From NCBI GenBank assembly GCA_029258795.1, contig JAPDKB010000007.1, forward strand, positions 160,001 to 224,000: a stretch of DNA of 64,000 nt, in the 5' to 3' direction. The stretch's first letter is position 1. Every line of letters starts with the position of its first letter. The translations under genes were made by a program, and so were the position numbers. Below the pieces are notes generated by a model that saw only the letters and a program-made list of their open reading frames with translations, searched no databases and had not been told where the DNA came from. The DNA is from an archaeon (GTDB lineage: Archaea > EX4484-52 > WAPT01). Positions 38,159 through 58,697 of the stretch are shown here, in pieces.

Positions 38159-39367
38159 ATGTTTGAAAAGGTTTCCTTCCTTTTCGGGAACAATGATTTA
38201 CTTTCCTTCTTGCTACTCATACTGTTTTTTTATTTCTACCCGCGTATCTACATCTGGCAGATGGTAAGCAAGCTGGAGACGGAGCTGGTCAAACTGGAGG
38301 AATACTCGAAAGAAGTGCAGAACGAGGTAACGAAAAAAATAAAGAGCACTCACAAGAGAAAGAAAGTGAACATCAGAATGTTAAAGAAAAGGGTTGGTGA
38401 ATTCATGGATTTTTTTGTTGTTTCTCCCGTGGATACTGATCCTTACGGGATACTGAAAAAGATTGAGCACATAACCAAGATTTCTGAAAGCAGGATAGAA
38501 AGGTTCCTGGACAGGATCGGAGGAACAGCAAACAGGGATGAGAAAAAGAACATAAAGTACGGGCTGGTAGGCGCGATGGGTGTGACCATGATCTACAAAA
38601 TCATGAGGCACTACATAGAGTTAATAAAGAAAACGAACAATCTCCAGCTCGCTATGGTACTGCAGATGATGCTTCCAGACATATTGAAAACAGCAAAAGC
38701 CAACGTCAAGGCCACAAAGGCATTTCTGGACGGTATACCGATAGGGGATGGTGTGGGACCGCTTGTGGCTGCCAAGCTCAAGAGTAAGGTGGGTGATGAG
38801 ATAGAGCGGGATGTTGTGGTTAGTGCTGAAAAGTTGGGGAAAAAGAAGGTTTTTGTGATGAAAGCAAAGGGAAAAGGAGCTGAAATCTCACAAGCCAAGA
38901 TGTGGCATGCTATAGAGAAGCTTGTGAAAAAGGAGAAAATAAAGCACATAATTTCCATAGATGCTAGTGTTAAACTTGAGGGTGAAAAAACGGGCAGTGT
39001 GGCTGAGGGTGTTGGTTTTGTCATGTCTCCTCACGGTGTGGACCGACCATTTGTGGAAGAGCTGGCAACGAAGCATGGTATAGAGCTGGATGGTGTGATA
39101 ATCAAAATGTCCGATTATGAGGCATCAATACCCATGAAGAAGGAAATATATGATGCAGTACCTGCCGCAATTGAGAAGGTGAGGGAGCTTGTGGAGCTGA
39201 GCCCTCACAATAGAATATTGGTTGTTGGTGTGGGCAATACATGCGGAATAGGTAATTCGGCAAAAGAGGTTGAAAATCTGGAAAAGGTGCTTAGACCCGT
39301 ATGGAGGAAGCTGAAGAAGGAAGAGGAGGAAGAAAAGAAGAGAAAGTGGTCTCTGCTTCCTGCATGA
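38159..39367 (+). CDS. DUF1512 family protein
   Basis: PVDTDPYGI, GIPIGDGVGPLVA, IDAS.KLEGEKTGSVAEG.G, GVGNT.GIG. Confidence 0.85.
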   Translation: MFEKVSFLFGNNDLLSFLLLILFFYFYPRIYIWQMVSKLETELVKLEEYSKEVQNEVTKKIKSTHKRKKVNIRMLKKRVGEFMDFFVVSPVDTDPYGILKKIEHITKISESRIERFLDRIGGTANRDEKKNIKYGLVGAMGVTMIYKIMRHYIELIKKTNNLQLAMVLQMMLPDILKTAKANVKATKAFLDGIPIGDGVGPLVAAKLKSKVGDEIERDVVVSAEKLGKKKVFVMKAKGKGAEISQAKMWHAIEKLVKKEKIKHIISIDASVKLEGEKTGSVAEGVGFVMSPHGVDRPFVEELATKHGIELDGVIIKMSDYEASIPMKKEIYDAVPAAIEKVRELVELSPHNRILVVGVGNTCGIGNSAKEVENLEKVLRPVWRKLKKEEEEEKKRKWSLLPA

Positions 39368-39405: not shown

Positions 39406-39915
39406 ATGAGTGAGGACAAAAAAAGTGAGAATATGGCTCAAGAAGAGGGCTTTCGGAAGAAGAGGATCAGCTTGGATGAATACTTTGCAAAGATGACCTG
39501 GGTTGTTGCTGAAAGGTCAACCTGCATAATCCCCGGAAGACAGTACGGAGCCATTGTTGTGAAAAACAAGCAGGTGTTATCCACCGGCTACAACGGCGCG
39601 CCGAGAGGCATGACCGACTGCCTTGAACTGGGTTACTGTCCAAAAAGAGCAAAGGGCGGAACAAGCGGAACGATGCATGAGGAATGTATAGCAGTGCATG
39701 CCGAGATGAACGCCCTGATTCAAGCCGGCAGGAATGCAGAGGGTGCAACTCTTTACGTTAATGGATTTCCGTGCAAGCTCTGCGCGAGGTTGATAGTTAA
39801 CGCTGGCATAAAACGGGTTGTAGTTTGCGGGGAGTACAGCGATAGAGAGGGGTTGAAGATTCTGGAGGATGCAGGAATTCAGGTAGATTACATCGATGTA
39901 TCTCACCTGCTCTGA
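39406..39915 (+). CDS. dCMP deaminase (ComEB-like)
   Basis: RSTC, STGYNGAP.G, HAEMNA, PCKLC. Confidence 0.9.
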   Translation: MSEDKKSENMAQEEGFRKKRISLDEYFAKMTWVVAERSTCIIPGRQYGAIVVKNKQVLSTGYNGAPRGMTDCLELGYCPKRAKGGTSGTMHEECIAVHAEMNALIQAGRNAEGATLYVNGFPCKLCARLIVNAGIKRVVVCGEYSDREGLKILEDAGIQVDYIDVSHLL

Positions 39916-39951
39916 ACACATCTCTCCTTGCTTACGGAGGAGGAGTATATC

Positions 39952-40560
39952 ATGAAAAAATGGCCGGTGTTCGTTGGAGACTTCAAGGTTGGAAACTTTG
40001 AGGGCTGGATTGCCATAGCCACGTTAAACACACCGTGGGAAGATATGCAGGAACTTCTCGGAATCGAGGGTGTGGCGATAATCGGAAGCGTGAAGACGGA
40101 AAATCTCGGTGTGGAGAAGATAGTTGCAAACGTGATAAGCAATCCAAATATAAGGGTCCTTGTTCTTTGTGGAAGAGAGTCGAAAGGTCATTATCCCGGA
40201 GATGCGCTTATATGCCTTCTCAAGAATGGTGTTGATGAAGAGGGGAGGATAATTGATGCGAGGGGTGCAATTCCCTATCTGGAGAATTTGAGCAGGACGC
40301 ATGTGGAACATTTCAGGAAGCAGATAGTTGAAATTATGGATTTGCGTGAGATTGAGGATGTGGAAATAATAAAGAAGGAGCTGGAGAAATTGAAGGAAAA
40401 AGAGGTTCGACCTTATGAAGGTGGGGCGGTTTATGTTGAGATTGAGGAAAAGAAGGGTGGCGGGCTGCAACATTTTGAAGGAGATGTTGTTTTCATTAAT
40501 GAGGCGGCGCAGATCGACACCTCAACATTTAAAGTTGAGCTGGTAAATCAGCAGGGGTGA
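39952..40560 (+). CDS. mtrA: MtrA-like corrinoid protein (soluble, no C-terminal TM helix)
   Basis: WP...GD, G..KTENLGVEK.VANVISNPNIR....CG.E..GH..G, RII.A.GAIPY.EN, F..Q; His ligand retained. Confidence 0.88.
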   Translation: MKKWPVFVGDFKVGNFEGWIAIATLNTPWEDMQELLGIEGVAIIGSVKTENLGVEKIVANVISNPNIRVLVLCGRESKGHYPGDALICLLKNGVDEEGRIIDARGAIPYLENLSRTHVEHFRKQIVEIMDLREIEDVEIIKKELEKLKEKEVRPYEGGAVYVEIEEKKGGGLQHFEGDVVFINEAAQIDTSTFKVELVNQQG

Positions 40561-40564
40561 TTTT

Positions 40565-41452
40565 GTGTTCATCTTTCCGGAGCAGAAGAAGATAAAGATA
40601 GGGACTGTGGAGCTGGGCGGACAGCCGGGAGAGTTGCCTGCGGTGATGGTCAGCACGATGTTTTATGAGGGGCATAAAATTGTGAAAAGTGATGGTGGTT
40701 TTGACAGGGAGAAAGCTGAAGAACTCCTGAACCTCCAGCAGGAGAAGAGCGATGAAACAAAACTGCCATACATAACCAACGTTTATGGGAATGATGCTTC
40801 CTCCCTCATCAAGAGGGTGGAATTCGTGGCTGAAAATGACGAAAATCCCATCATGATTGATTCTCCCAGCTATTCTGCCAGAGTTGAAGCCATGAAATAT
40901 GCTAAGGATTGTGGACTGATTGACAGATGCGTGTACAACTCTCTCAACATCACACTGAATAAAGATGAGAAGGATAAACTTGCTGAGCTCAGCGCGAGGA
41001 ACGTGCTTGTGCTTGCTCATGCTATCAATGAGCAGAGTGTTGAGGATAAGATATCGTGCCTTGAAAAGGATGGTGCGATGGGGAAGGGCTTGCTTGATCA
41101 CGCTAAGGAGATAGGAGCAAGTAACGTGCTGATAGATACTGCGACAACACCCCTGCAGCAAGGAGCATCTCTATCCTTAACTTCTCTGGTCACCTTGAAA
41201 GCCAAATATGGCCTGCCTGTTGGATGTGGAATACACAATGCTGTGAGTTCGTGGGAATGGATAAAGAAAAGAGAAAGCTATAAAGTTGTGGATGCTGCCT
41301 CCGCACTACTGCCTGTGATCCTTGGAGCGGACTTCGTGCTCTACGGACCCATAGAGAATGCAAGATACGTTTTTGATGTTGCTGCGTTTGCTGAAATTCT
41401 GGTAGAGGAAAACGTTTCTCGTTTCACTTCCACATTCGGACTGAGCCTGTGA
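40565..41452 (+). CDS. mtrH: MtrH-like methyl-tetrahydropterin:corrinoid methyltransferase
   Basis: GGQPGELP.V...FY.GH.IV....FDRE.AE.L, IDS, YNS, G.GIHN....W.W, GADF.LYGPIENA. Confidence 0.9.
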   Translation: MFIFPEQKKIKIGTVELGGQPGELPAVMVSTMFYEGHKIVKSDGGFDREKAEELLNLQQEKSDETKLPYITNVYGNDASSLIKRVEFVAENDENPIMIDSPSYSARVEAMKYAKDCGLIDRCVYNSLNITLNKDEKDKLAELSARNVLVLAHAINEQSVEDKISCLEKDGAMGKGLLDHAKEIGASNVLIDTATTPLQQGASLSLTSLVTLKAKYGLPVGCGIHNAVSSWEWIKKRESYKVVDAASALLPVILGADFVLYGPIENARYVFDVAAFAEILVEENVSRFTSTFGLSL

Positions 41453-41465
41453 GGGCATGCACTTT

Positions 41466-44400
41466 TCAGTCACACCTCAAGCATCTCCCGTTAACGAGCC
41501 TCATGCCACATGATGGGCATCTTTCCTTGCTTTCTATGGCCTTCTTGAGATATGTGAGGTACTCATCTCTCGCTACGGGCTCAGTGAAATAGACCAAATC
41601 GGGTCTTCCTGCTGGCTCTGGTTGTTGCGTGGTTCTGGCCACTGTTACCGGCACATTCCCTGCCATAAGTGGAGGAGTTGCGGGGAGTGTTGGCGATTTA
41701 TACGTGGTGACACCTTTCGATTTTTCTGCATGAGTTCTTGCACGTGCGAAGGGGAGCAAGGAAGGTATGCTGAGCTTGCGCTTTCCGTAGGAGTAGGTGG
41801 TGGAAGAGCTCATCCTCGTGTAGTACATCAGTCCAAACAATCCGAGCAGTCCTAAGCTCACGATAACGATCAGCATCGTTTTCCATGGTTTGGCGGGCTT
41901 TTCTTTTGATTCAATAAGATAGCTCTCCATCTGGTTGAGGTAATTTGATGCTCTCGCTATTTTTTGCTGTGCCGCTTCATAATTTCCGCTCATGACGTCA
42001 TCTCTCGCTGATGCCAAAAGGGAGGAAGCTTCATCGTACAGCTGCTGGAGTTCCTGTGGAAGCGACTCTCGATTTATGGCTGTGAGCCTTCCAGCCATGT
42101 TGTCGATGGTGTTCATGAGTGTTTCATATACATCTTCTTGTGTTTCTTCTGATGCCTCTTCACTCACGATGTTTATTTGTGCTGTTGCTGTGGTGCTTAT
42201 CTGGTCAGATGTTATGAGTACGTAGATATCGCTAGAGTAGGAGTAGAGGCACAGGCTATACTCCAGCTCTACACTTTCATTGGGAAGCAGTGTGATCGGA
42301 CTGGATTCAAATGTTATGGAATGTGTGCTTGAAGTAACATCTTTCACCCGTAGATTTGTGATTATTTTCTTGCCCTTATTAGTAACACGAATCGTTCCGA
42401 TTGTGCATCCACCTACCGACACGGACACAGGCGTGGCATAAACGCTCAACTTATACTCATCTTCCTTTTCTGTTGGCTGAGTAACTACTGATGACGTTCC
42501 AGCAATGGAGGTTGTTGGCTCGTAACTCTTGCCATGCGAAGGCGTCGGACAGTAGAAGGACACATATATATCCTTCACTTCCTGATCCGTGAGGTTGAAA
42601 GCTTCCGTCTTAAAGTCGTTACATCTGGGCTTTGTTGCTTTTATCATTACATTTGTGGCTTGTGTTGTTGAGTTCAAAAGGACAAAATTCTCAGCTCCTT
42701 CTTCAGTAATATTTATGGTTTTCACCAGCGTTCCATTGGAATATACGTAAACCATGGTTCCTGCCTGCTGTGAGCTGCTCACAAGGATGTGTAAAATAGC
42801 ATAACCACTTGTCGAGTTTAGCACCAGCGTTAGATTATTACCTGCCTTTTCATTTCCGCCAGCTTTAACCTCAATCCATCTTGGCTCAGCGGGGAAATAT
42901 CCAGCTTTGTAAGCTGATAGCGCATTCATCTCAAGCGTATAGTTGCCGGGAGTCATTTCTCTGAAGAAAACCAGCCCGCTTCCATTTGTTTCTGCACAAG
43001 TCGTCGTGTTGAGGCAGAGCTGAATGTTGCTCAACGGTGTGCCAGTCGTATTAATAACATGGATTGAGTAGCGAGTTTCATTGAAGATTGCAGTTATATT
43101 TGCTATCTTGCCATGTTCATCGAGCTCCACGGCAGTTGGAGCTGAAACCGGGATATACGCATCACTCACAACGTAAGTGATGGTGTAATTACCAAGCGGA
43201 AGCCGTAAGAACTGAACTTTACCGTCTTGAGTCGCGTTTTCAAGCTCAAGTCCAAGCTCCGCATTCCTTATCTTCACCTTTCCATCAAAGCTCTCGTTGA
43301 GATCGTTACTCAAATTAATTATGATAGATGTTGGTTGAAGTTCAATCGTTATTTCCTCAACCTTCCCGCTCTCCATAAAATGATGGACATGGGCTGTGCC
43401 GTAGTTTTCCTCAGTTCCATCAAACACGAAGGTGTAGTTACCCTGACCTAGAAACACAACAGCTTCGCCGTCCTCATTGCTCACCACATGACACAAGTCT
43501 GGCTGTGAGGTTCCAACAAGATAACAAGATATAGAAACGTTTGGGATTGGCATTCGTGTTATGGAATCCACTACTTTTATCCTCATCTCTGACTCGCCGG
43601 CAGTGTAAAGATAAACGCTCTGATTTATGATCTCGTACGTTGTTGACGGAATCTTTATTGGCTGAGGAGCGTTGTATCCTGCAGTCATCACTTCCAAATA
43701 AGACACACCATAATATGGATTAAATCTACCTTCAAGGAGGTTACCTTCCTTCCAGTAAGCTGTGTAAAGAGGAGATCCTACTTCATCAGTTAGCGTGAAG
43801 TTCGCAATTCTGATCTCAACATTTATCGGATCGCCTGTTTTTGCATCGTAAAGATAGATGTAAGATTTTCCAATCGGGACCATTGGAATTATGAAGTTCT
43901 TACTCTCGCCATCTGAAAAGGTTATGAGGTGTGTTTCAGCACTTTCATTATAGTAAGTGTAAGTTTCATAACCCTCCTTGACCACAACGAGCTTGTAGTG
44001 CTGCAGCTCAGCATTTCCCTCCACAGGTGAGCCGAGGGTGTAGGGTGATACTCTTGCATAAAAGTTTCCTGCCGTGTCAGTATGCAATACATATCTTGCC
44101 TGCTGGTCTAATGTTGGGGAAGCATCATAAAGGTAGATGGTGGCGTTGTATATGTTCTTTCTCGAATCAAGGGGATTTATAAAGTAAAGGTCATATACGT
44201 GCCCGCTTATCTCCGCAGTACCGTTCAGATATATTCGGAATGCTGGCTTTATGCCGTAACCGTCCACAACATCATCCAGATAGCTACCTGAAAACCTGAT
44301 TCCCAAATCCTTGGAATTGTAGCTCTCGTAACCTCTAGCGCGTATCAGAACATAATACCGTTTCTGCCCGTCGATACTCAATTTCAAGTGACCGCTTGAA

Positions 44401-47400
44401 GTTGTATTTCCTGCATTCATCTTGAGCCATCCAACCATGAACGCATTTTCTATTATCAACACACCGTAACCCATGGATGTGCCATTAATCACAACATCAA
44501 ACGCATCGGAGGTAACATTGAACGTTGCTTTTCCGCTTGAGTTGGTGTAATTAACATATTCATTTCCTGTAAGGTGAGATATTAGCTTTACAGTGACGTT
44601 TTCAAAAACATTATTTCCTTCTTCATCAACCACAGTTATGGTAATTATAAATCTGTCGTCACTTATGTTCATCGGTTCGAAGGGTGATGATCCCTCCACA
44701 ACATCTGGATCTAGAGCCACAATTTTATGCTCTCCGGTATCGATGTCAATTAGGGTCCAATTTATGGTTCCGCTCTTGTTTACAGTTAAATTACAGTTAT
44801 TGCAGGGGAGCAACCTTCTGAAAATCACCCTACCATTGCTGTCAGTTGTACCATTTACATAGTTGCCGAGAGCGTCTTTTGCAACTCTCCACTCCCCACT
44901 AACATTTTCAAACAGAGTGACCAATGCCCCACTTACGGGATCTCCTTCTGGAGTGTGTACAGTAACGTTCAGCGTCGTGATATTCAGTTTAACATTTAGC
45001 ACGCCTCCCCAGACAACGTTGTAATCATCAAAATTGGCATTCCCGTATCCTTTGTCTTCTCCGATGACTGTTATATCGTATTTTGTATTGTTTTTGAGGT
45101 CCGTGAATCTCGCAATACCGGTAGTGGTGTTTTTCTCTGTCTGATAGTCCGTGCCAGTTACTATAACTGTGATGTTATCGAGAGGATTACCATTCTCGTC
45201 AGTGACATTAACTGTAAAGGTGCTGTCCACTATAGTGAAGGTGTAATTAACCTCCGTGGTGCAGTTTTTGTTTAGATCGCATATGGTTATGTTCCATCTC
45301 CAATTACCGCAACTGAATAGCATAGATGCGGTGTGATTTGTAGAAAATACATTAGAGGTCCATTTGTATGAATTGCTGCCGTTGTAGAACACTACAGAGA
45401 TATTGGTAGATTCGCTTGTAGAGATATTTATTTTGAGACTTATCGGTCCCCTTGAACATGGAGCGCCCAGTACTGTATTGTTCTCCGGCTCAACGGATGT
45501 AACGGACGGAAGCCTGTAATCAACTTTGATGTAATTGTTTCCCGAAAACACGAGAACAGTATTATTGACATCAGGATATCCCAATTTGGTTATAGTGAGT
45601 GTATAGAGTGTTGGTATGACGCCTGAGAATTCCACCTTACCTTCGGTGTCAGTGAGATCCGTTAGCGGTGCACCCGTTTGGTTAAAAGCAATACCGCTTT
45701 CATTCCAGAAAGTAACATTTGCATTGCTTATCTTAGTTGTGCCGTTCACAACTTCAACCAGTACATCTGTAGTGCTATTTGCAAGGATAAAGAAGACCAC
45801 ACTGTTGTTACAGTTGTTGGATTCATCGCACACTTTTATTTTCCATTTCCATGTACCGCAGATAAGTGCTATTTTACGTGTGTGGTTGGTGCGGAGTTCC
45901 GTATCATTGAAGTAATTTAACGGTGTGCTCTCCTGATCCTTGTAGAATTCTGAATAGAGAGTCGTGTTCTCATTTGTTGCGACCCAGTAGGTCATTTTCT
46001 CTGGAGAGTCTTGATTACAGTCAATGATTACGAAGGAATTGTTTTTGGGGTTGGTGCCCACTATCAATGGAGGGTATATATCTAAAGTCACGTTATTCTC
46101 GCCTTCACGAACGGTAATAGATTTTTCGTAGTGATGCTGTGTGGGGGAATAAACATCAACAGTGAGCTTGTAAGTGTATGGTTGAAGCATATCGAAAAGC
46201 ACGCTTCCGTCTGATGATGTAAGTGATGTTAGTGGAGTCCCAGCAGTGTTCCTTGCTATAGATGAGCCGTTCCAGAGTGTGACATTTGCGTTTGCTATGG
46301 GTTTGACACCATTCGTGATTACGACTTTCAGATAGGTTCGAACGAAGTTAATCGTGTAGTTGTTCTTCTTACCCGCCATATCGGTAGTGAGCGTGTAGGT
46401 ATCATATTTTATTCCACATCCCTGCGATACAGCGTCCACTTTTATTCTGTATGCGCCGACTGGTACGAACTTGAACATGACTGATCCATTATCATTTGTT
46501 GTTGCTGTGAATCTGCACAGATTTCTTGTTGCTTGTGCTGGGGTGCATCCGTCTGTCTTGTTCATCTCCACCAAAATTCCGCTGTGAGAACACCCGGTGG
46601 TGTTAATAGTTAGATTCAGTGTTGTTATGTTGAGGCCCTGAGTTTCGTATTCTCCCTTTTCATCAGTTCTGAAGAACAAAATTACTTCAGCGTTTGGAAT
46701 AGGTTTGTTGTTATAATAATCGTAAACGAACGTCTCAAAGTAAGCTTTCAATTTTATTGAATTTTCTCCTGTAAAATTGTAGTTGGGTGGGTAAACCTTA
46801 CTATAACCGTCCCATGCAAGGTATCCGTGTTGATAAGCTCTGATCTTGTACTGTGTGGTGTTGTCAACGTGAATGGTGAAGCTTCCGTCGATGTTCTTTT
46901 TCTGATATATGAGTTCACCGGTATCCGGCAGATAGAGCTCAACCGTGGCGTTGTGCAGCGGCTCTCCTGAGTATGCATCCACCAAGCTACCTTTTATGGT
47001 GCCTGCACCTCTCAGCTTATGAACTGTCCACATGTTTATGAATGCTGTACCGGTCTCGTTTTTCGTTAGATAACCTTCTTTACTGAAATTGATGATATAA
47101 TTCGAGGTAACACCCAGATAGGCATCGAAATAACCATCTCCATCCGTCATAAAGACATAGCGCAATATCGTGGTGTTACTGGAGTTTTCCTTTATTTCAA
47201 TTCTAACGTTGGAGAGGGGCCGATCATTTTCTTCATCTATTACATATCCGTGAAAATGAGTGTATCCTCTCAAAACAAAGTTCTTAGTTACGGTATCTCT
47301 ATCGATTATTAAATCGTAATAGGGACTGCTATTGTAACCGAGTCGAGAAGCTTGAATACGAATCATTTTATCCTTAGGCACCCTTATGGAATATGCTCCG

Positions 47401-50400: not shown

Positions 50401-50801
50401 CCTCTGAGTACTACATCAACATAGTTCGGACATGTTCCCGCCGTTGCATTACACGTACCGTTGTTTCCATAAAGAGAAATGTCTACAAACTTACTATTAT
50501 TCTCACCTATGGCGGAGATGTTGTTGAAGCCCAGATAGAGCACAAGGGAAGCATCATAGATGGAGTAATTCGCGCCATCCAGCGTGAGATTCAGCTGCGT
50601 CATGTTCACTGCCTCAACACTTGAGTTGACCTCGAACCACGAGTGGTTCAGTATCGAGTTGTTGGAAGGAGTTGGTGGGACGAAAGTTGCAACCGGCAGC
50701 GCTAATGCTGCTTCTGCAGAGATCAACAGGAGTAATAGCAGTATCGCCGCGCCTCCTGCTCGCTTTCTACTCATGAACTCTCTACTCTTCTTCCTCCTCA
50801 T
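41466..50801 (-). CDS. Giant (3111 aa) membrane-anchored surface glycoprotein/adhesin: LamG-like, Ig-like repeats, carboxypeptidase-regulatory-like repeats, TM helix, C-terminal Zn ribbon
   Basis: Signal peptide ILLLLLLISAEAALA; FDGVDDYI...TIMAWI...GIVDELRIYNRTLS (LamG); VDTTPPVI repeats; many T(D/N)xxG.F and G.V.D repeats; abundant NxT/S; TM LIVIVSLGLLGLFGLMYY; CPSCG...CLRC. Confidence 0.88.
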   Translation of the reverse strand: MRRKKSREFMSRKRAGGAAILLLLLLISAEAALALPVATFVPPTPSNNSILNHSWFEVNSSVEAVNMTQLNLTLDGANYSIYDASLVLYLGFNNISAIGENNSKFVDISLYGNNGTCNATAGTCPNYVDVVLRGVEFDGVDDYIEIDDSPSLHITDELTIMAWISVGETGLNHTIVEKNGSYYLFVDSNGYLTFYTYVSGEFDKEIQYPLNLFHDAYFVAISRNSTTTKLIILEEDAPQLFVITAPNRGLMDVSNDPLRIGRRLAGTDAANGIVDELRIYNRTLSEDEIIKIFSLSYLAKLNTTRWEYLIIPFNLSDGTHTFAIWVEDNSTTLNTTGTMVVTVDTTPPVIHINSPQNNSVVNTSNIMLNVSVSDLTSTNITYEIDNNGTIFTLCNDCSNAATTLTLQDGTHTITVYATDSAGWVNSSTITVTVDTTPPVIDILSPQNTTIYTTNVLDLNISISDTTPANITYEIDSNGTVFTLCTNCFGGTTTLTFNDGIHNITVYAVDSAGWTNSSFLVFDVSTTPLNITVIDGENLQPVSGVSVTVTGYPFGLSITQPTNADGKTTVFVDKTLLYNIYADKEGYITTVLTNINLSTTNNLTVPIFGNTTINGKVIGISEYGFLTISNATVRIINNQTGMVEYVLQTDDEGYFSLRIRGTFDYTLEVDAGTNFIMRRWNFTASTELNNYTFYVYKRGLASFKMRVVDYQNGMPLDNATVTFVLSESTNFTTVTNSSGFAWIFVRGGYVDEGFPYCYRLVVERYGYRTRNETFTSYCVMEGEEKDLGSITLKGNYLMRGRLVDEFNTDLGVSGAHVTLRKWTPNGIGGFVGEEYGYNYSTISNDSGDWEIYVPPYMLDEHGFVIEAQRDGYFAANFTNEGSGYTISENGTRYLPPFFMRGAIHVKIKLLDFYSNKPVPGINVKIEELDNFGFNYPQYATYNFYTDSEGFVDAYIRENNYYTLIVGGSDSGYKPLQLYAVGDINGTYYLEGTLYISGRVLDVNRDENNATITLPLIPIKLCPSSGLAYCYDVTSSYGGNFSLYVKGNEIYKITANGTEEGYNHTTISVDGRGTDFLSVDLVLEGRSVIKGVVRDEACSDSRILYVNPCNIPNPKIKVEFNINGKEIYPVVVGDKNGAYSIRVPKDKMIRIQASRLGYNSSPYYDLIIDRDTVTKNFVLRGYTHFHGYVIDEENDRPLSNVRIEIKENSSNTTILRYVFMTDGDGYFDAYLGVTSNYIINFSKEGYLTKNETGTAFINMWTVHKLRGAGTIKGSLVDAYSGEPLHNATVELYLPDTGELIYQKKNIDGSFTIHVDNTTQYKIRAYQHGYLAWDGYSKVYPPNYNFTGENSIKLKAYFETFVYDYYNNKPIPNAEVILFFRTDEKGEYETQGLNITTLNLTINTTGCSHSGILVEMNKTDGCTPAQATRNLCRFTATTNDNGSVMFKFVPVGAYRIKVDAVSQGCGIKYDTYTLTTDMAGKKNNYTINFVRTYLKVVITNGVKPIANANVTLWNGSSIARNTAGTPLTSLTSSDGSVLFDMLQPYTYKLTVDVYSPTQHHYEKSITVREGENNVTLDIYPPLIVGTNPKNNSFVIIDCNQDSPEKMTYWVATNENTTLYSEFYKDQESTPLNYFNDTELRTNHTRKIALICGTWKWKIKVCDESNNCNNSVVFFILANSTTDVLVEVVNGTTKISNANVTFWNESGIAFNQTGAPLTDLTDTEGKVEFSGVIPTLYTLTITKLGYPDVNNTVLVFSGNNYIKVDYRLPSVTSVEPENNTVLGAPCSRGPISLKINISTSESTNISVVFYNGSNSYKWTSNVFSTNHTASMLFSCGNWRWNITICDLNKNCTTEVNYTFTIVDSTFTVNVTDENGNPLDNITVIVTGTDYQTEKNTTTGIARFTDLKNNTKYDITVIGEDKGYGNANFDDYNVVWGGVLNVKLNITTLNVTVHTPEGDPVSGALVTLFENVSGEWRVAKDALGNYVNGTTDSNGRVIFRRLLPCNNCNLTVNKSGTINWTLIDIDTGEHKIVALDPDVVEGSSPFEPMNISDDRFIITITVVDEEGNNVFENVTVKLISHLTGNEYVNYTNSSGKATFNVTSDAFDVVINGTSMGYGVLIIENAFMVGWLKMNAGNTTSSGHLKLSIDGQKRYYVLIRARGYESYNSKDLGIRFSGSYLDDVVDGYGIKPAFRIYLNGTAEISGHVYDLYFINPLDSRKNIYNATIYLYDASPTLDQQARYVLHTDTAGNFYARVSPYTLGSPVEGNAELQHYKLVVVKEGYETYTYYNESAETHLITFSDGESKNFIIPMVPIGKSYIYLYDAKTGDPINVEIRIANFTLTDEVGSPLYTAYWKEGNLLEGRFNPYYGVSYLEVMTAGYNAPQPIKIPSTTYEIINQSVYLYTAGESEMRIKVVDSITRMPIPNVSISCYLVGTSQPDLCHVVSNEDGEAVVFLGQGNYTFVFDGTEENYGTAHVHHFMESGKVEEITIELQPTSIIINLSNDLNESFDGKVKIRNAELGLELENATQDGKVQFLRLPLGNYTITYVVSDAYIPVSAPTAVELDEHGKIANITAIFNETRYSIHVINTTGTPLSNIQLCLNTTTCAETNGSGLVFFREMTPGNYTLEMNALSAYKAGYFPAEPRWIEVKAGGNEKAGNNLTLVLNSTSGYAILHILVSSSQQAGTMVYVYSNGTLVKTINITEEGAENFVLLNSTTQATNVMIKATKPRCNDFKTEAFNLTDQEVKDIYVSFYCPTPSHGKSYEPTTSIAGTSSVVTQPTEKEDEYKLSVYATPVSVSVGGCTIGTIRVTNKGKKIITNLRVKDVTSSTHSITFESSPITLLPNESVELEYSLCLYSYSSDIYVLITSDQISTTATAQINIVSEEASEETQEDVYETLMNTIDNMAGRLTAINRESLPQELQQLYDEASSLLASARDDVMSGNYEAAQQKIARASNYLNQMESYLIESKEKPAKPWKTMLIVIVSLGLLGLFGLMYYTRMSSSTTYSYGKRKLSIPSLLPFARARTHAEKSKGVTTYKSPTLPATPPLMAGNVPVTVARTTQQPEPAGRPDLVYFTEPVARDEYLTYLKKAIESKERCPSCGMRLVNGRCLRCD
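49236..49775 (-). repeat. Two tandem 270-bp (90-aa) Ig-like repeats inside the giant gene
   Basis: VDTTPPVI.I.SPQN...NITYEID.NGT.FTLC..C....TTLT..DG.H.ITVYA.DSAGW.NSS repeated with a 270-nt period. Confidence 0.85.
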
Positions 50802-51006
50802 TCACCACACCAACACCACTCACAACATGTTTCGGCAAGTAAACATGCGCTCTGCCAACCACCACCCTCTCAAGCAGTCCCTGCTGCCTCATTGCTTCCA
50901 GATACCCCGTCAAGAATTCTCTTCTAAGCTTGAGACGTTTGGCTAGTTCAGAAACAGACATGGGCTTCCTTGAGAGCTCTTCCATTATCCTCTCATGAAT
51001 CTCCAT
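50782..51006 (-). CDS. Small winged-helix DNA-binding protein
   Basis: PMSVSELAKRL...GYLEAM..QGLL....VGRA.VY; abuts the start of the giant gene. Confidence 0.8.
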   Translation of the reverse strand: MEIHERIMEELSRKPMSVSELAKRLKLRREFLTGYLEAMRQQGLLERVVVGRAHVYLPKHVVSGVGVVNEEEEE

Positions 51007-51179
51007 CCAACATCACAAAACCGCACTTGTTCTCTTTATCTCTATACCTCAAGCACTCGAGTTAATGAGTTAAAGGACAAAAAGCCCTATATAAAGATTT
51101 CCATATTGCCGTCAATATGATGTGCAAGCTTTGCGACAAATTCGCTTATAATAAAAATTTTACCCACGAAGGTCTTATC

Positions 51180-51872
51180 ATGCTAATAATAGGCACGAAC
51201 ACGGAAGACGCTTGGAGAAAGGCCGTTAAAGCTGTGATGGAACACGGCAGAACCATAGTTAGTGAAGATGGTGATGAAACTAAGGAGATAATAGGGCTTG
51301 CGGTGAGGATACTCAAACCCACCATAAGCATAGATAAAGCTCCACCCGAATACCCATTCCATGGAAAAGCTCTGCAGGATTATGTTGATCAGCTCATGAC
51401 ACCTGAAAACAGATGGGGCTTTGAGTACACTTATGGTGAGCGTATATGGAACTGGAACAATCAGGTCAATCAGGTTGAAGCGATAATTGAGCGGCTTGCT
51501 AAGAGTCCTTTCAGCAGGCGTGCGGTCATTGACCTCACCATTCCCACCATGGACCACTTTCCCGAAAAGATAAGAGATCCTCCCTGCCTCAGAGTTATCT
51601 GCTTTAACATAAGGGAGGAGAAGGAAGCGCCAATGCTGCCTGCGGTAAAGAAACTTCACACGGACGTGCTCTTCAGAAGCCACGATATATTTGGAGCAAG
51701 CTATGCGAACTGGGTGGCGCTCGCTCACCTTCAAAAACATGTTGCTGATGAAGTTGGAAGACGGAGAGGAGAGCGGATATTCATGGGAGAGCTGCACAGC
51801 TATTCCGTCTCAGCCCATATTTATGGCAGGGATTTTGAGATGGCCGATAGGGTTGCAAGGTCAACTAATTGA
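51180..51872 (+). CDS. thyA: Archaeal-type thymidylate synthase
   Basis: GFEYTYGER, QV..II..L.....RRA, DPPCL (catalytic Cys), FRSHD, AN, SAHIY. Confidence 0.88.
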   Translation: MLIIGTNTEDAWRKAVKAVMEHGRTIVSEDGDETKEIIGLAVRILKPTISIDKAPPEYPFHGKALQDYVDQLMTPENRWGFEYTYGERIWNWNNQVNQVEAIIERLAKSPFSRRAVIDLTIPTMDHFPEKIRDPPCLRVICFNIREEKEAPMLPAVKKLHTDVLFRSHDIFGASYANWVALAHLQKHVADEVGRRRGERIFMGELHSYSVSAHIYGRDFEMADRVARSTN

Positions 51873-51907
51873 ATTCTTTAGCTCAAACTGGATTAACTTA
51901 AGGTGAA

Positions 51908-52463
51908 ATGATGGCTGGTCATACTGTGGAAGTGCTGGCAAAAAAATGGAGAGATATCGAGAAGATACTTTACAGAAGTTATATATGGAGTTACGTGTGC
52001 TGAAGTCGTGAAAGCAATCTATTTTCAGCAATTGGAAGAAGCAAAAAAGTTCAAGTACCCGGCCATCCATACATCGGAAACTCTGGGAAAACTGGTGAGG
52101 TCCATCAGAAAGGTCGACGCGAAAGAGGACGAGAGACATGACGTAAAACTCGGGAAAAGGGTGCTGAAGTGTTTGAGAAATATCGAGTATCTGTGCAATT
52201 CAGGAAAACCCGTTCTCTCTGATTACGACATAACACTTGAAATAAACACCTACAGGATGCACGATCTGCTGATGGATGTTTGTGAAGATTGTGAATTTAT
52301 GATAAATCCAAGAACCTGTTACAGGGAAGGTTTCTGTGGTGCTGAAAAAATCCAAGAGAGGATTCTCGAAGTTGTTCGAAAGAATTATGGAAAGAAGGGT
52401 GTCAAACCTCAAATACACGAAATAAGCGTGAGCGCAGAGTTCTATAGTCTCCTCCGAAAGTAA
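51908..52463 (+). CDS. Orphan Cys-motif protein, paralogue 1 (probably frameshifted at A7 51940-51946; intact downstream frame 52008-52463)
   Basis: AGGTGA RBS then ATGATG at 51908; removing one A joins MMAGHTVEVLA to KNGEISRRY...; motif CEDC-x8-CYREGFC. Confidence 0.55.
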
Positions 52464-52550
52464 TGCTGATTCAGTTTAAACTAAATAGAGATATGTTTAA
52501 ATTTCATCGAATAAAAATTTAAAAATATTTGTTATGATTATTACTTATTA

Positions 52551-53018
52551 GTGGTTACCATGATCGAAGATGCGCGCAGGCTGGAAAAAAGAAAGGAAAA
52601 GGTGTTGAGAAACAAACCCGGTGGTGTAAAAGTAGAGGAGTTCTTAAAAAGACTTTCCGAAATGCAGAAAGGGTATGAGCCTCTGTACACACGGGAAGAC
52701 ATCCATAAAATCATGAAAAGTTTCAATCCGGAGGTTCCTCCTCACTCAGTTAATTGTATGCTTGAATATATTAAAGAGCTCTCCAGATTAAATGGACACG
52801 GCAATGGAATAAAGGTGGAAATAGAAACAAATTATCTATGGAATGTTATAGAGAGGTACTGCCGCAGATGTCCGGGCGAACAAAGACTCTCGTGCTACAG
52901 AAAGGGTGAGTGCACACTCAATATATTACCAAAGAGTGTAGTGGAGCTATACAAGGAAAAGATGCCCTGTGCAGAAGGAAGAAAGACTCGAGTTTATAAT
53001 ATTAGGGTCACGATGTGA
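52551..53018 (+). CDS. Orphan Cys-motif protein, paralogue 2
   Basis: CRRC-x7-CYRKGEC; aligns by eye with the upstream ORF. Confidence 0.65.
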   Translation: MVTMIEDARRLEKRKEKVLRNKPGGVKVEEFLKRLSEMQKGYEPLYTREDIHKIMKSFNPEVPPHSVNCMLEYIKELSRLNGHGNGIKVEIETNYLWNVIERYCRRCPGEQRLSCYRKGECTLNILPKSVVELYKEKMPCAEGRKTRVYNIRVTM

Positions 53019-53056
53019 AGATTCATATAAAAATTCTGGTGCTGTATGAATAAACT

Positions 53057-53545
53057 ATGCGCATCTCCCAGCAAATATGGCCGAGAAGCGTTGTGCTCGT
53101 GTGCAGCGTGGATGAAGATGGTAAAGCAAATGTTATGACCGCGAGCTTTGTCATGCCTGTAAGCTTTAACCCAAAATACATAGCTGTTTCCATCTCTCCC
53201 AAACGTCACACCTTCTCCAACCTTCAGAAAGTTAGAGAGATGACCATCAACGTTTGCGATGTGAACATGAAGAAAGCTGCTGATATCTGCGGTACTTACT
53301 CGGGCAAGAATGTGGATAAGTTCGAGCTAGCAAACCTCACTGAGGAGAAATCAAGAAAGATCAGGGTACCGTGTATAAAGGAAGCACCAATCAGTTTTGA
53401 ATGTGTGGTTGAAGGTATGCATGAATACGGAGACCATTTTATCGTTGTGGGGAGGGTTGTGGAGGAGCACGTGAGGAAAGCTGAGTTCGAGCCGCTGCTT
53501 CATGGAAGTGGGGATGATTACTTCACCGCAAGAAAGATCGACTGA
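53057..53545 (+). CDS. Flavin reductase family protein (flavoredoxin-like)
   Basis: P.SVVLV...G.ANVM, PVSFNP, RHT, CG..SG..VDKF, P.I.EA....EC, GDH. Confidence 0.88.
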   Translation: MRISQQIWPRSVVLVCSVDEDGKANVMTASFVMPVSFNPKYIAVSISPKRHTFSNLQKVREMTINVCDVNMKKAADICGTYSGKNVDKFELANLTEEKSRKIRVPCIKEAPISFECVVEGMHEYGDHFIVVGRVVEEHVRKAEFEPLLHGSGDDYFTARKID

Positions 53546-54557
53546 GGATTTCATCCAGCAGCTCATATTTATTGAAGCACATGAGGTGTACACCCCTGAA
53601 GTCAAGTTCTCTGCTCAATTTGATCATTTCCCTCGTTCTTTCAATTCCGGCAGCTTCGCCTTCTTTTTTTACCGCTTTGATGAGCTCTTCATCTATTCTC
53701 ATACCCGGCACTCTTTTCAGCTCTTCAACCATTTCAGCCGAGATCAAGGGTAACACGCCCACGATCACCTTTCTTCTGAACTCTTCATCCAGTTTCCTGG
53801 CCAGCTCTTCGAGAACTGTAAAGCTGAACACTGCCTGTGTCTGGGCAAAATCAGCGTACCTCATCTTCTTTCTGAACTTGAGCAACTCATTCTCAAGCGG
53901 GACTGCGTTTGGGTTAAGAGCGACACCCACGCTTAGCGTGCGGAACCTCTCATTCTCGTCCTTCTTGAGCTTCCATGCAAGATAGGTTGAATCCACAAAG
54001 AAGTGTGCTTTCCTCCCTTTAGAGTAATCTCCAGTCAGCAGGAGCACGTGGTTTATGCCAGCAATTCTTGCAGCGAGCAGCTTTGAAGTTATCACTTCCA
54101 TACTCTTGTTCCTGCAGACCACCTGCAGAATCGGGATGATATGTTTTTCCATGAGCCAGCATGCAACCATAAGATTGTCAGCATGTTCTTTTCCCATCGG
54201 GTTGTCCGTCACATTTACTGCATCGATAAGGTGAGATCTTTTTTGTAACTTTTCCATCAGTTCAGCTATTTTTTCCTTTTCACCGAACGGAGCAAGCTCG
54301 GTTGTGACTACAAAATCCTTGGAAAAAAATGATGGCTCAACTCTCGGTGGCGTGAAATCCTCAAGCTTCTGCCCTTCATGAAAAATGGAAATGATTTCGT
54401 TTTCCATGCCCGCGTTTCTCAGCTCGTTCATGATTTCAGCCCATGCACACCTGCCGCCAAGCTCACAAATCCCATCATGGCTTCCGCCACATGGCCCATT
54501 CCACATTTGTTTCGGGCAGCGATCGTGTGCTTCTACAACCAGTTTGAAAATATTCAT
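53523..54557 (-). CDS. metF: Methylenetetrahydrofolate reductase MetF with fused N-terminal MetV-like Cys domain
   Basis: CPKQMWNGPCGG..GICE....CAW, then VTTELAP, NVTDNP, CRN, LTGD, QTQ.VF, GVHLM; start placed at MNIFK after GAAGGTGG. Confidence 0.82.
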   Translation of the reverse strand: MNIFKLVVEAHDRCPKQMWNGPCGGSHDGICELGGRCAWAEIMNELRNAGMENEIISIFHEGQKLEDFTPPRVEPSFFSKDFVVTTELAPFGEKEKIAELMEKLQKRSHLIDAVNVTDNPMGKEHADNLMVACWLMEKHIIPILQVVCRNKSMEVITSKLLAARIAGINHVLLLTGDYSKGRKAHFFVDSTYLAWKLKKDENERFRTLSVGVALNPNAVPLENELLKFRKKMRYADFAQTQAVFSFTVLEELARKLDEEFRRKVIVGVLPLISAEMVEELKRVPGMRIDEELIKAVKKEGEAAGIERTREMIKLSRELDFRGVHLMCFNKYELLDEILSRSFLR

Positions 54558-54682
54558 TAAAGCCACCTTCAATCCCGTTTTTCTTACCACTTTCAAGCAC
54601 TTCAAGATAGATATGGATGTTAGATGTTAAAATTGTTGTGTTGTTTCGCTCTCTCAAAAAATGCCACTTCCTGTTCATCATT

Positions 54683-54856
54683 TCATCCTGACACAAACTT
54701 TTCCATATCTTTCAGGTCGAAGCACCATACTTTCCTGCTCTCAAACTCATCAATTCTTTTGCTGAAGCTCTTGGCAAAAATGGCAAAGCTTTCCTTTCTC
54801 TCATCGCTGTGCCAGTCAACGTGCTTTGATTTTTCGGCAAGTTCTTTAACAATCTT
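54683..54856 (-). pseudogene. Remnant C-terminus of an archaeal ATPase/DUF234-type protein
   Basis: Startless frame KIVKELAEKSKHVDWHSDERKESFAIFAKSFSKRIDEFESRKVWCFDLKDMEKFVSG*, preceded by an in-frame stop. Confidence 0.5.
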
Positions 54857-54959
54857 TCAGCAAATTCAATCATTTCAAGATTCTGTGGCTCATGCGTGAC
54901 TGCTCACCCAGCTGCATCAGAGCAACACATTTTAATTAATTACCGTCCAACACCATTCT

Positions 54960-56210
54960 GTGATGAGGATGAACCCTGATGAAATTATTGGAGAGGTTGT
55001 ACATCTTACCAGGCTCCACGATCTCTGGCGCAAATACGAGTGCATAAATTTGATAGCTTCTGAAAACATTATGTCCCCGAAAGCAGAAGAGCTTTATATC
55101 AACGACATGATGCACCGCTATGCTGAAGGACTGCCGTTCAAGCGGTACTATCAGGGTCACAAGTATCTCGATGAAGTGGAGGTAAAAGCGCAGCAGCTCA
55201 TGGCCGGGCTTTTCAATGCCGCACATGTTGATTTGCGCCCCTTAAGCGGCACGATAGCTAACCTTGCTGTCTTTGTCGCGTTTCTGGAAAACGGGAATAA
55301 GGTTGCTGCGCTTGACGTCCCTCACGGCGCTCACGTCTCTCACACGATTCATGGCGCGTTGGGATTGAGGGATGTGGAGGTGCTGCAGCTGCCGTTTGAT
55401 AAGGAAAGAATGAACATAGATGTTGATAAGGCGGTAAAGCTTGTGGAGCAGGAAAAGCCAGATATGATTATTCTGGGGGCGTCGCTATTCCTTTTCCCGC
55501 ATCCAGTAAAAGAGATAAGCGATGCCGCCAAGAGTTATGGAGGGCTTGTTGTGTATGATGCCGCCCATGTACTCGGATTGATAGCGGGTAAGCAGTTCCA
55601 GCAGCCATTTGAGGAGGGAGCAGATGTGGTCACGAGCTCAACCCACAAAACCTTCCCCGGCCCGCAGGGCGGCGTGATAATGGCTGCTGAGCATGTTGAT
55701 TTCGAGAGGGTGCAGAAGGCGATATTTCCAAAACTTGTGTGCAATCACCACATCCACCGGCTCCCTGCTTTGGCTCAGACCGCCTGGGAGATGTGGAGGT
55801 ATGGTGAAGCTTACGCCAGACAAACAATAAAGAACGCCAAAGCGTTGGCTGAGAAGCTGTCTGAGCTGGGCTTTAAAGTGCTGGCTGAAGAGCATGGATT
55901 TACCGAAAGCCATCAGGTTGTGATAGATGTGAGGGAGTACGGTGGCGGAAAGGTTAACGCTGAGAAGCTGGAAGCAAACAACATCATAGCCAATAAAAAC
56001 ATGATTCCGGGAGATGAGGCAAGCAGCGAGACCATGAAGAATCCTTCCGGCATAAGGATCGGCACGCAGGAGATGACGAGATGGGGCTGCAAGGAGAAGG
56101 ACATGGAGGCAATAGCGGAGTTCATACATCGTGTTGTGGTCAAGGAAGAGAATGTGAAGGATGATGTAATGGAGTTCAGAAAGAGTTTTAGGGAGGTGCG
56201 CTACTGCTGA
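54960..56210 (+). CDS. glyA: Serine hydroxymethyltransferase (archaeal type)
   Basis: INLIASEN, HRYAEG.P..RYYQG, YDAAHVLGLIAG, SSTHKTFPGPQGG, SGIRIGT. Confidence 0.95.
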   Translation: MMRMNPDEIIGEVVHLTRLHDLWRKYECINLIASENIMSPKAEELYINDMMHRYAEGLPFKRYYQGHKYLDEVEVKAQQLMAGLFNAAHVDLRPLSGTIANLAVFVAFLENGNKVAALDVPHGAHVSHTIHGALGLRDVEVLQLPFDKERMNIDVDKAVKLVEQEKPDMIILGASLFLFPHPVKEISDAAKSYGGLVVYDAAHVLGLIAGKQFQQPFEEGADVVTSSTHKTFPGPQGGVIMAAEHVDFERVQKAIFPKLVCNHHIHRLPALAQTAWEMWRYGEAYARQTIKNAKALAEKLSELGFKVLAEEHGFTESHQVVIDVREYGGGKVNAEKLEANNIIANKNMIPGDEASSETMKNPSGIRIGTQEMTRWGCKEKDMEAIAEFIHRVVVKEENVKDDVMEFRKSFREVRYC

Positions 56211-56542
56211 TGCTTCCCCACAAGATATTTGAGATAAAAGCTGAGAAGCACAGCGAGGCAGAAATAAAGCTGGACAAGCATTTCTTCGTTATAAACGTTG
56301 ATCATGAATCAAAGGAAATCGTGGTTGAAGCTTATGAATATCTGGGCACGGAAACAAGACCGGGGAGTGGAAAGCTGAAGTTCATCTTCAGGGGGAAGAA
56401 TGGTATAGATCTTTTTCGCACAATACTTAAGTATGACCTCGTGAGCATGCTGGATCATGCTGCATATCTGGGCTATGAGCTTGCCAGAGCCGAGGAATGC
56501 CTGAAATCCGGCAAAAAGTACGTGCAGGACGAGAACGGATAA
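56210..56542 (+). CDS. DUF4346 domain protein
   Basis: LD..F.I..D, G.....L...I....LVS.LDHAAYLG.EL.RAE..L..G..YVQD; 1-nt overlap with glyA. Confidence 0.85.
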   Translation: MLPHKIFEIKAEKHSEAEIKLDKHFFVINVDHESKEIVVEAYEYLGTETRPGSGKLKFIFRGKNGIDLFRTILKYDLVSMLDHAAYLGYELARAEECLKSGKKYVQDENG

Positions 56543-58603: not shown

Positions 58604-58697
58604 CAAATTTTTCTCTAACCCGGATTTTCTTCACCACGTGTTGATGAAAAACCGATAACCCTTAGCTTTATATAGATTGATTGCGATGATTGTATTC

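Follow-up and report, generated by a model that had tools for sequence, protein, structure and literature searches.

Linkage of MtrA, MtrH and DUF4346 to archaeal thymidylate synthase suggests a shared role in dTMP synthesis

The window analysed here, a stretch of 64,000 nucleotides (contig JAPDKB010000007.1, positions 160,001 to 224,000) from an archaeon of the EX4484-52 lineage, contains between its positions 39,406 and 56,542 genes for a deoxycytidylate (dCMP) deaminase, the corrinoid protein MtrA, the methyltransferase subunit MtrH, an archaeal thymidylate synthase (ThyA), a flavin reductase-like protein, a fusion of MetV-like and MetF parts (MetV~MetF), serine hydroxymethyltransferase (SHMT, glyA) and a stand-alone DUF4346 protein (Table 1). 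MtrA, MtrH, DUF4346, the deaminase and the one-carbon enzymes probably serve thymidylate (dTMP) synthesis together with ThyA, as indicated by the gene identities, the fusions, the adjacency and co-occurrence of the genes and the absence of other methyl acceptors. A preliminary description of this DNA had proposed that MtrA and MtrH belong here to a dTMP-supply module and do not pump Na+. Fusions, gene pairs, the co-loss of the set in one genus and the failure to find MtrE, dihydrofolate reductase (DHFR) or any conventional acceptor speak for that proposal, but MetF and the flavin reductase, which it included, are not constant members. Its gene calls and coordinates were confirmed, every named open reading frame (ORF) being in place with Pfam and NCBIfam matches that agree; the deaminase, MtrA and MtrH genes do form a tight operon (spacing 12 nt, then 4 nt) and glyA overlaps the DUF4346 gene (1 nt shared).

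The survey of neighbourhoods and fusions that the preliminary description had suggested shows MtrA, MtrH, ThyA, DUF4346 and genes for enzymes making deoxyuridylate (dUMP) to be linked well beyond the window's genome. It covered 42 genomes from eight families of the phylum (searches by order, class and phylum give the same 42), of which the window's own, G000 (1.17 Mb, 23 contigs), is 96% complete and the others 57-95%. Genus g3 of family f3 encodes MtrA and ThyA as single proteins of 474-508 residues (PF04208 E 3e-41, PF00303 E 8e-15), and another f3 genome (G011, genus g10) carries a 544-residue MtrA~MtrH fusion followed after 8 nt by a ThyA-like gene. The 481-487-residue proteins of family f2 are diverged MtrA-like~ThyA~DUF4346 fusions, and in family f8 a 594-residue protein combines MtrA with a very divergent ThyA (33 bits to the ThyA profile of our alignment A6). 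Where genus g6 of family f6 has both MtrH and ThyA (seven genomes), the genes adjoin in four, lie within about 0.7 kb in one, are 5 kb apart in one and fall on separate contigs in one; the adjoining MtrH gene directly precedes ThyA. In the window's own genus (family f1) the order DUF1512, dCMP deaminase, MtrA, MtrH is kept in all three genomes, with ThyA about 9.5 kb off across a giant gene (9.7 kb separate the MtrH and ThyA genes in the window). The deaminase of both sister genomes, 80-81% identical, stands upstream of MtrA-MtrH, and dCMP deaminase precedes MtrA in 3/3 f1 genomes. A dCTP deaminase (PF22769 E 1.6e-47) is found directly before MtrA in three of the four g6 loci examined and 2.7 kb off in the fourth; hence two unrelated dUMP-making enzymes are placed before MtrA in two families. 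As a separate observation, the MtrA~ThyA fusion gene of G004 has two RimK-like ATP-grasp genes immediately upstream, in divergent orientation (L031 7585-9334); RimK-like ligases glutamylate pterin cofactors in other archaea.

Over the 42 genomes ThyA is present in 28, MtrA in 27, MtrH in 15, DUF4346 in 15 (14 stand-alone), MetF in 13 and Thy1 in 12. Both MtrA and ThyA were found in 23, just ThyA in five, just MtrA in four and neither in ten; of the four with MtrA only, two are f8 fusions, one has the gene at the end of a contig and one is a genome of 68% completeness. ThyA accompanies MtrH in each of the 15 genomes that have the latter, and 14 of these contain a stand-alone DUF4346, which the other 27 genomes lack. 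In genera g6 and g11 of family f6, ThyA and MtrH are present in 11 of 12 genomes each, MtrA, DUF4346 and MetF in 10 of 12 each and ThyX in none, while their sister genus g13 has ThyX in 4/4, a single ThyA fragment among the four, and MtrA, MtrH, DUF4346 and MetF each in 0/4. That g13 has ThyX and is without the whole set is what would be expected if MtrA, MtrH, DUF4346 and MetF all serve ThyA. DHFR_1 gave one real match in the 42 genomes and none alongside archaeal-type ThyA. In G008 (family f7; L046, G008:C19 6288-7642) a FolA (E 4.3e-56) directly follows a different ThyA-like gene that matches TIGR03283 weakly (E 3e-13); this genome is without MtrA, MtrH and DUF4346, and the two genes are recognizably a classical ThyA-FolA pair.

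The content of G000 itself was assessed with Pfam profiles in six-frame searches, on which all absences rest. MtrA, MtrH and DUF4346 are each present in one copy. No match to DHFR_1, Thy1/ThyX, Meth_synt_2 or the B12-binding family PF02310 was found anywhere in G000, nor to URO-D, which gave two weak matches among the 42 phylum genomes; S-methyl_trans (PF02574) was found in 0/42, G000 included. MtrE (PF04206; MtrB-D, F and G were not searched), CdhC (acetyl-CoA synthase), Pterin_bind and CobS were each 0/5 in five genomes including G000. The folA, thyX, metE and mtrE genes to be looked for according to the preliminary description were thus not matched by the DHFR_1, Thy1, Meth_synt_2 and MtrE profiles, and its remark that no mtrB-G, methionine synthase, DHFR/Dmr or methanogenesis gene lies in the window extends genome-wide for the families searched, which did not include Mcr, MtrB-D/F/G and Dmr. 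Since Thy1 is unmatched, ThyA is the sole thymidylate synthase found in G000, and it is there without FolA. For MtrA and MtrH we found none of the usual methyl acceptors, that is, the Mtr membrane part, MtaA-like enzymes, a homocysteine module or acetyl-CoA synthase, and MtrH would be the sole known consumer of the methyl-pterin produced by MetF.

MtrA of the window scores 178.4 bits against PF04208 (cut-off 25) and 166.5 against NF002126 (cut-off 161); its 168 bits against the equivalog TIGR01111 are under the cut-off of 249. It aligns with the solved structures 5LAA, 5L8X and 8Q3V at E 3e-40 to 1e-37. The accessible text of Wagner et al. (PMC4915002) describes His84 of MtrA as the lower cobalt ligand, Glu54 as its hydrogen-bond partner, a GAIP[FY]xEN meander, and cobalamin tail contacts by Asp17, Tyr18, Lys52, Thr53, Asn55, Gly57, Val61 and Asn64. 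The window protein has the motifs named there, KTENLG (Lys52-Asn55), GH (His84) and GAIPYLEN, and its histidine ligand, already reported in the preliminary description, aligns with the GH of 5LAA. Among the cobalamin-holding residues of 5LAA, Lys52-Asn55, Gly57, Asn64, His84 and the GAIPYxEN meander are kept, and almost all of the tail contacts are kept too, with Phe at the position of Tyr18 and Ile at that of Val61; the protein would be expected to bind a cobamide. In the same text MtrA proteins shorter than 215 residues are classed as cytoplasmic, and by this length class the 210-residue MtrA of the window would be soluble. MtrH reaches 271.8 bits against PF02007 (cut-off 22.8) and, with 270.8 against 271.4, falls narrowly under the cut-off of the equivalog TIGR01114.

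ThyA of the window scores 172.9 bits against TIGR03283 (cut-off 174.55) and 49 against PF00303 (cut-off 24.3). The catalytic PC, SRR, RSxD, Asn and SAHxY are invariant in alignment A6, and the window's cysteine aligns with the catalytic cysteine region of T4 dCMP hydroxymethylase. The best match among PDB sequences has E 0.0018, this type of ThyA being without a solved structure. The true start is probably at 51180, because the relatives begin at the MLII position of alignment A6. The biochemistry of methanogen ThyA was reportedly addressed by Krone et al. in 1994, Nyce and White in 1996 and Xu et al. in 1999. Little is known of the biochemistry and cofactor use of archaeal ThyA (Chadwick et al. 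2022, PMC9012536; Filee et al. 2023, PMC9931769).

The stand-alone DUF4346 protein scores 74.6 bits against PF14251 (PterinBD-DUF4346; cut-off 29.6). The invariant residues of the family (His, Gly, Glu, Ala, Glu, Gln) are located within a DHAAYLGxELxRAE helix, and the motif is kept in the window's copy. Its model (predicted local distance difference test, pLDDT, 76) consists of three strands and two helices, and Foldseek found no match for it in the PDB at E <= 0.001. Elsewhere DUF4346 is a C-terminal fusion on ThyA, MtrA or DHPS-like proteins; among 16 long relatives it is fused to MtrA alone in five and to DHPS-like proteins in two, and NCBIfam NF002128 models a 390-residue MtrA+DUF4346 protein. 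SHMT and DUF4346 genes are also paired in G001 and in the f6 genomes G007, G041 and G025 (all three g6 loci retrieved), whereas G011 and G022 do not show the pair.

Outside the phylum, a profile built from eight fusions was compared with 1.84 billion representative sequences, giving 10871 matches at E <= 0.001 and 180 at E <= 1e-30; the best 150 are mostly of 450-530 residues and span the whole profile. A scan of 100 representatives found Thymidylat_synt in all 100, DUF4346 in 88 and MtrA in 81. Among 136 representatives of at least 380 residues, 103 combine an MtrA-like domain lacking the ligand histidine with ThyA and DUF4346, 15 are ThyA+DUF4346, eight are a His-less MtrA-like domain with ThyA, five are ThyA with a His-keeping MtrA, one has all three domains with the histidine, and four show other combinations. 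At least 595 genome loci encode MtrA-like~ThyA~DUF4346. The best 80 of these, searched 8 kb either way with the window's proteins, belong to Woese-, Aenigm-, Nano-, Pace- and Micrarchaeota and to bacteria of the candidate phyla radiation (CPR), such as Kerfeld-, Nealson- and Wolfebacteria and Saccharibacteria; ThyA matched at 80 of these loci, MtrA at 60, DUF4346 at 39, dCMP deaminase at 20 and SHMT at three. The AlphaFold 2 (AF2) model of one tri-domain protein is of high confidence and compact (pLDDT 87.7, predicted template modelling score, pTM, 0.80), and Foldseek recognises only the thymidylate synthase (TS) fold in it. ESM Atlas clusters carry the automatic name 'MtrA/Thymidylate synthase'. 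Two further ESM Atlas clusters, scoring 0.80-0.84, are leads only: a 262-residue MtrA-domain cluster labelled 50% Viruses (Uroviricota), and an 800-residue CPR (Minisyncoccota) cluster with MtrA and DUF4346. A contig scan of the genomes with the single MtrA protein as query found no relative. In a quick IQ-TREE analysis of MtrA domains (67 rows; two rows, both pieces from L147, left out) the relations between split, fused and Mtr-complex MtrA are unresolved.

In our reading the window contains, in split form, the parts of a composite system for thymidylate synthesis made up of ThyA, MtrA, MtrH and DUF4346, and it is likely that these proteins serve dTMP synthesis. As mechanism, a relay resembling that of methionine synthase (MetH) appears the most likely, by analogy, at somewhat less than an even chance. 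In this relay dCMP deaminase would supply dUMP and SHMT would make methylene-pterin, which, in the species of G000, MetF would reduce to methyl-pterin. MtrH would shift the methyl group from methyl-pterin to cob(I)amide on MtrA; on ThyA-bound dUMP, with the cysteine added at C6, the C5 carbanion would take the methyl from methyl-cob(III)amide, yielding dTMP and cob(I)amide, and any cob(II)amide arising by oxidation would be reduced again by the flavin reductase encoded next to ThyA. What we infer is that MtrA binds a cobamide, that the methyl group flows in this direction, that ThyA accepts it, and what DUF4346 and the flavin reductase do. TsrM is a methyl-cobalamin C-methylase and CobR a flavin-reductase-type corrin reductase; the flavin reductase-like protein of the window could possibly be a corrinoid or pterin reductase. 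The relay would form no dihydropterin, so that DHFR would not be needed, and it would account together for: (i) the missing DHFR; (ii) the orphan MetF; (iii) the missing acceptor; (iv) the fusions, and (v) the exchange of the entire set for ThyX. A bolder claim, which we consider somewhat unlikely, is that of a third thymidylate route beside ThyA/DHFR and ThyX, in which archaeal-type ThyA would methylate dUMP from the methyl-cobamide of MtrA, loaded by MtrH from methyl-pterin, without producing dihydrofolate. The widespread tri-domain enzymes of DPANN and CPR would then descend from this system or be related to it, in fused form and possibly with an altered cofactor.

The proposed relay can be compared with known systems. 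In MetH a pterin-binding TIM-barrel module loads cob(I)alamin on a Rossmann-type module, with a third module for presenting the nucleophile and a need for reductive repair; the counterparts would be MtrH, MtrA, ThyA and the flavin reductase, and, as in MetH, modules are fused in some lineages. However, the modules are not homologous (neither PF02310 nor PF02574 was found), the methyl group would go to a carbon of dUMP instead of to a thiolate as in MetH, and the chemistry is here only proposed. MtrA and MtrH are true family members of the Na+-pumping Mtr complex (MtrA-H), with His84, Glu54 and GAIPYxEN kept, whereas MtrE is 0/5, MtrA is of cytoplasmic length, no acceptor on the coenzyme M side (MtrE, URO-D/MtaA-like) was found and the partners are dUMP-making enzymes and ThyA. 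The DHFR-TS proteins of protozoa and plants likewise have an accessory domain N-terminal to TS, and each arrangement is a way of coping with the dihydrofolate problem that ThyA poses, but in the fused relatives this domain is MtrA-like, without a DHFR_1 match, and a third, C-terminal domain (DUF4346) is present. With ThyX the system shares the proposed net result, dTMP without dihydrofolate and no FolA, and the two swap between genera of this phylum; fold and cofactor are unrelated, and G001 and G002 carry a tandem Thy1 gene in addition to the ThyA set.

Several results weigh against the relay, or against its extension to all of these genes. The aspartate of RSxD, which we take to be the pterin-ring binder of classical thymidylate synthases, is kept, and this fits ordinary methylene-pterin chemistry. 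The histidine ligand of cobalt is kept in the MtrA-like domain of only six of the 136 long representatives, and the common tri-domain consensus retains only Gly57 and Asn64, Thr53, Glu54 and Asn55 being lost; even the f3 MtrA~ThyA fusions, which keep the histidine, Thr53, Asn55, Gly57 and Asn64, have alanine in place of Glu54. MtrH, MetVF and the flavin reductase are found at 0/80 of the best DPANN/CPR loci within 8 kb, and MtrH is missing in the fusion lineages of the phylum (0/8 in genus g3 of f3, 0/5 in f2), so that the methyl loader is lacking there. In the quick MtrA tree, split MtrAs and fused domains do not group together. The co-loss seen in g13 happened once in evolution, and related genomes are not independent cases. 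With Pterin_bind and CobS not found (5/5 genomes), cobamide and pterin would have to be imported, and the organism appears to import both. Lastly, ThyA lies beside only one of 80 metagenome MtrH relatives, the closest (50% identity), MtrA beside 15 and MetVF beside three; MtrAH in general is therefore no dTMP system, and a general service of MtrAH to ThyA is ruled out. The linkage of MtrH and ThyA pointed out in the preliminary description is thus real in the window's phylum, but confined to it and to one close metagenome relative.

MetF and the flavin reductase proved less constant than had been assumed. MetF, described as part of the module, is missing in the sister species G001 and G002 and in G011; it occurs in 11 of the 15 genomes with MtrH (G027 also lacks it) and in two of four f5 genomes that are without MtrH. 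The four MtrH genomes without MetF rule it out as an obligate member. The place of MetV~MetF in G000 is taken in G001 and G002 by a tandem Thy1 (ThyX-like) gene, which looks like a swap within the genus and is a further difficulty for the relay. The tandem Thy1 is a 431-residue protein of two Thy1 halves (L042 2066-3361 in G001, G002:C25:4679-5779), and its gene is placed between SHMT-DUF4346 and the flavin reductase-ThyA pair. The window's MetV~MetF fusion scores 83.1 bits (E 2.8e-23) against PF02219 and 42.1 bits (E 7.1e-11) against PF12225, an MTHFR C-terminal piece that we take to be MetV; a CPKQMWNGPCGG Cys motif is visible in the translation of this piece. As for the flavin reductase, its partnership with ThyA holds only in the window's own genus (the two genes adjoin in G001, L042 6576-7061 and 7077-7886), none lying near ThyA in the f6 loci.

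The strongest alternative, unlikely but weighty, is a classical ThyA that takes in methylene-pterin and gives out dihydropterin, with MtrA or its MtrA-like relatives, DUF4346 and, in this phylum, MtrH either reducing the dihydropterin, perhaps with the flavin reductase, or channelling scarce imported pterin from SHMT to ThyA. DHFR_1 is missing from all genomes with this ThyA type, and also from four of five CPR/DPANN genomes, and the accessory domain N-terminal to ThyA recalls DHFR-TS. Every partner of DUF4346 is pterin-using: ThyA, SHMT, DHPS-like proteins, and MtrA via MtrH. Pterin, with Pterin_bind 0/5, would be imported and so worth hoarding; the RSxD aspartate is invariant, the flavin reductase adjoins ThyA in f1, and the loss of cobalt ligands from most fused MtrA-like domains fits a non-corrinoid role. 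On the other hand, MtrA and MtrH of the window are canonical in every motif and the only known job of the pair is methyl transfer via cobalt, the MtrA fold is without any known NAD(P)H or flavin binding, the Foldseek matches between the tri-domain model and DHFR-TS are confined to the TS part (root-mean-square deviation about 21 A over about 500 columns), and the loss of MetF along with the set in g13 is left unexplained. Pterin handling suits the widespread His-less enzymes better than the relay does, and both may hold in different lineages. A related candidate, replacement of the lost His84 by the DUF4346 histidine, was set aside as a lead only: DUF4346 accompanies 103 of 111 His-less MtrA-like~ThyA proteins vs one of six His-keeping ones, and the window's phylum has His-keeping MtrA and DUF4346 together.

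It is improbable, in our estimate, that MtrA or its MtrA-like relatives and DUF4346 are structural or regulatory and non-catalytic (oligomerisation; cobamide or pterin sensing), reduced folate being imported from a host and dihydrofolate discarded. The genomes are small (0.5-1.6 Mb) and without Pterin_bind and CobS, host-dependent DPANN and CPR are the typical carriers of the fused family, the ligands have been lost from most fused domains as expected of a relic or regulatory domain, and thyA without folA is read as auxotrophy in the accessible part of PMC11974145. Nevertheless, the architecture and its own conserved motifs are kept across hundreds of divergent clusters, the invariant His, Gly, Glu, Ala, Glu and Gln of DUF4346 resemble a working site, and MtrH, an enzyme, accompanies the set in this phylum. 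Very improbable is a general one-carbon role, the usual assumption for non-methanogens, in which MtrA and MtrH move methyl groups between some methylated substrate and the pterin pool and lie near nucleotide genes by chance: MtrAH outside methanogens has been hypothesised to feed the Wood-Ljungdahl pathway (Adam et al. 2022, PMC9635834, accessible text), 15 of the 80 metagenome MtrH loci pair with MtrA and one with ThyA, and 9.7 kb separate the two genes in the window, but acetyl-CoA synthase is lacking (CdhC 0/5), searches for PF02310, URO-D and S-methyl_trans found no substrate-specific methyltransferase or acceptor family, and chance explains neither the fusions or adjacencies of four independent kinds across four families nor the two unrelated dUMP-making enzymes before MtrA.

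The literature holds parts of this picture. The role of MtrAH outside methanogens is called 'currently unclear' by Adam et al. (2022, PMC9635834), in whose accessible text the word thymidylate is absent, and a 2026 reconstruction, as far as its accessible part goes, places MtrA and MtrH in the archaeal ancestor by inference and interprets both as subunits of Mtr (PMC13473441). ThyA and FolA are treated as a functionally coupled unit in accessible passages of PMC9931769 and PMC11974145, and the words fusion, MtrA and DPANN never occur in Filee et al. (2023, PMC9931769). The MtrA+DUF4346 and MtrA+ThyA+DUF4346 architectures have already been annotated automatically (NF002128, ESM Atlas entries), named merely thymidylate synthase or MtrA, and the literature search found no functional statement or paper on this family. 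Nor did it find a paper on an MtrA-ThyA link or on the function of DUF4346 or MJ0757; it missed most subscription journals and supplements. The results bear on the role of MtrA and MtrH in non-methanogens, on the life of ThyA without FolA and on the cofactor of archaeal ThyA, points that can be tested with a handful of small soluble proteins. If the methyl-cobamide route were true, it would add a new class of reaction to an enzyme family with decades of study behind it, and would be a new dependency of DNA synthesis on vitamin B12 and the first defined job of soluble MtrAH outside methanogenesis. Even if the relay is false, a three-domain thymidylate synthase common in DPANN and CPR has gone undiscussed, and its two extra domains need a function.

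Table 1. Features of the window between the DUF1512 gene and the phosphoenolpyruvate synthase gene
Feature	Position	Strand	Matches and remarks
DUF1512 protein, 402 residues, hydrophobic N-terminus	38159-39367	+	PF07431, PF23542
dCMP deaminase	39406-39915	+	dCMP_cyt_deam_1 PF00383 E 1.1e-20; first gene of the operon; predicted to make dUMP
MtrA, 210 residues	39928-40560	+	PF04208 E 1.2e-52
MtrH	40565-41452	+	PF02007 E 8.2e-81; methyl-pterin:corrinoid methyltransferase subunit
Giant ORF, 3111 residues	41466-50801	-	CarboxypepD_reg, Ig-like, Laminin_G_3 and MG4 domains
Small helix-turn-helix (HTH) protein (HTH_5/MarR; ArsR/MarR type)	50782-51006	-	
ThyA, archaeal (methanogen) type	51117-51872	+	TIGR03283 E 5.8e-51; PF00303 E 5.9e-13
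Two small Cys-rich ORFs, 151 and 155 residues	52008-52463, 52551-53018	+	no Pfam/NCBIfam match
Flavin reductase-like protein	53057-53545	+	Flavin_Reduct PF01613 E 7.1e-37
MetV-like~MetF fusion	53523-54605	-	PF12225 residues 28-73; MTHFR PF02219 residues 95-356
SHMT (glyA)	54960-56210	+	PF00464 E 2.3e-69; NF000586 E 6.2e-136
Stand-alone DUF4346	56210-56542	+	PF14251 E 1.1e-20
S-adenosylmethionine decarboxylase	57458-57898	+	PF02675; ordinary gene past the module
Phosphoenolpyruvate synthase	58677-61154	+	PPDK_N, PEP-utilizers; ordinary gene past the module

Among the neighbouring genes, DUF1512 may be a further associate of the module, its membership being uncertain: in G001 and G002, too, its gene immediately precedes the operon of deaminase, MtrA and MtrH, and G018 has a homologue of 52% identity at a distance of 1.1 kb from MetVF (L215 8237-9343). 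The giant gene was considered as a part of the module and ruled out, its product being a surface protein by its CarboxypepD_reg, Ig-like and Laminin_G_3 domains; it has four CarboxypepD_reg repeats besides the Ig-like, Laminin_G_3 and MG4 domains. The gap that it makes between MtrH and ThyA is common to both sister genomes, and the HTH gene precedes it, overlapping its start by 20 nt. The two Cys-rich ORFs are missing in G001, where the flavin reductase directly follows ThyA. Other Cys-rich ORFs without a family adjoin ThyA in G007 and G018 and have no similarity to the window's two.

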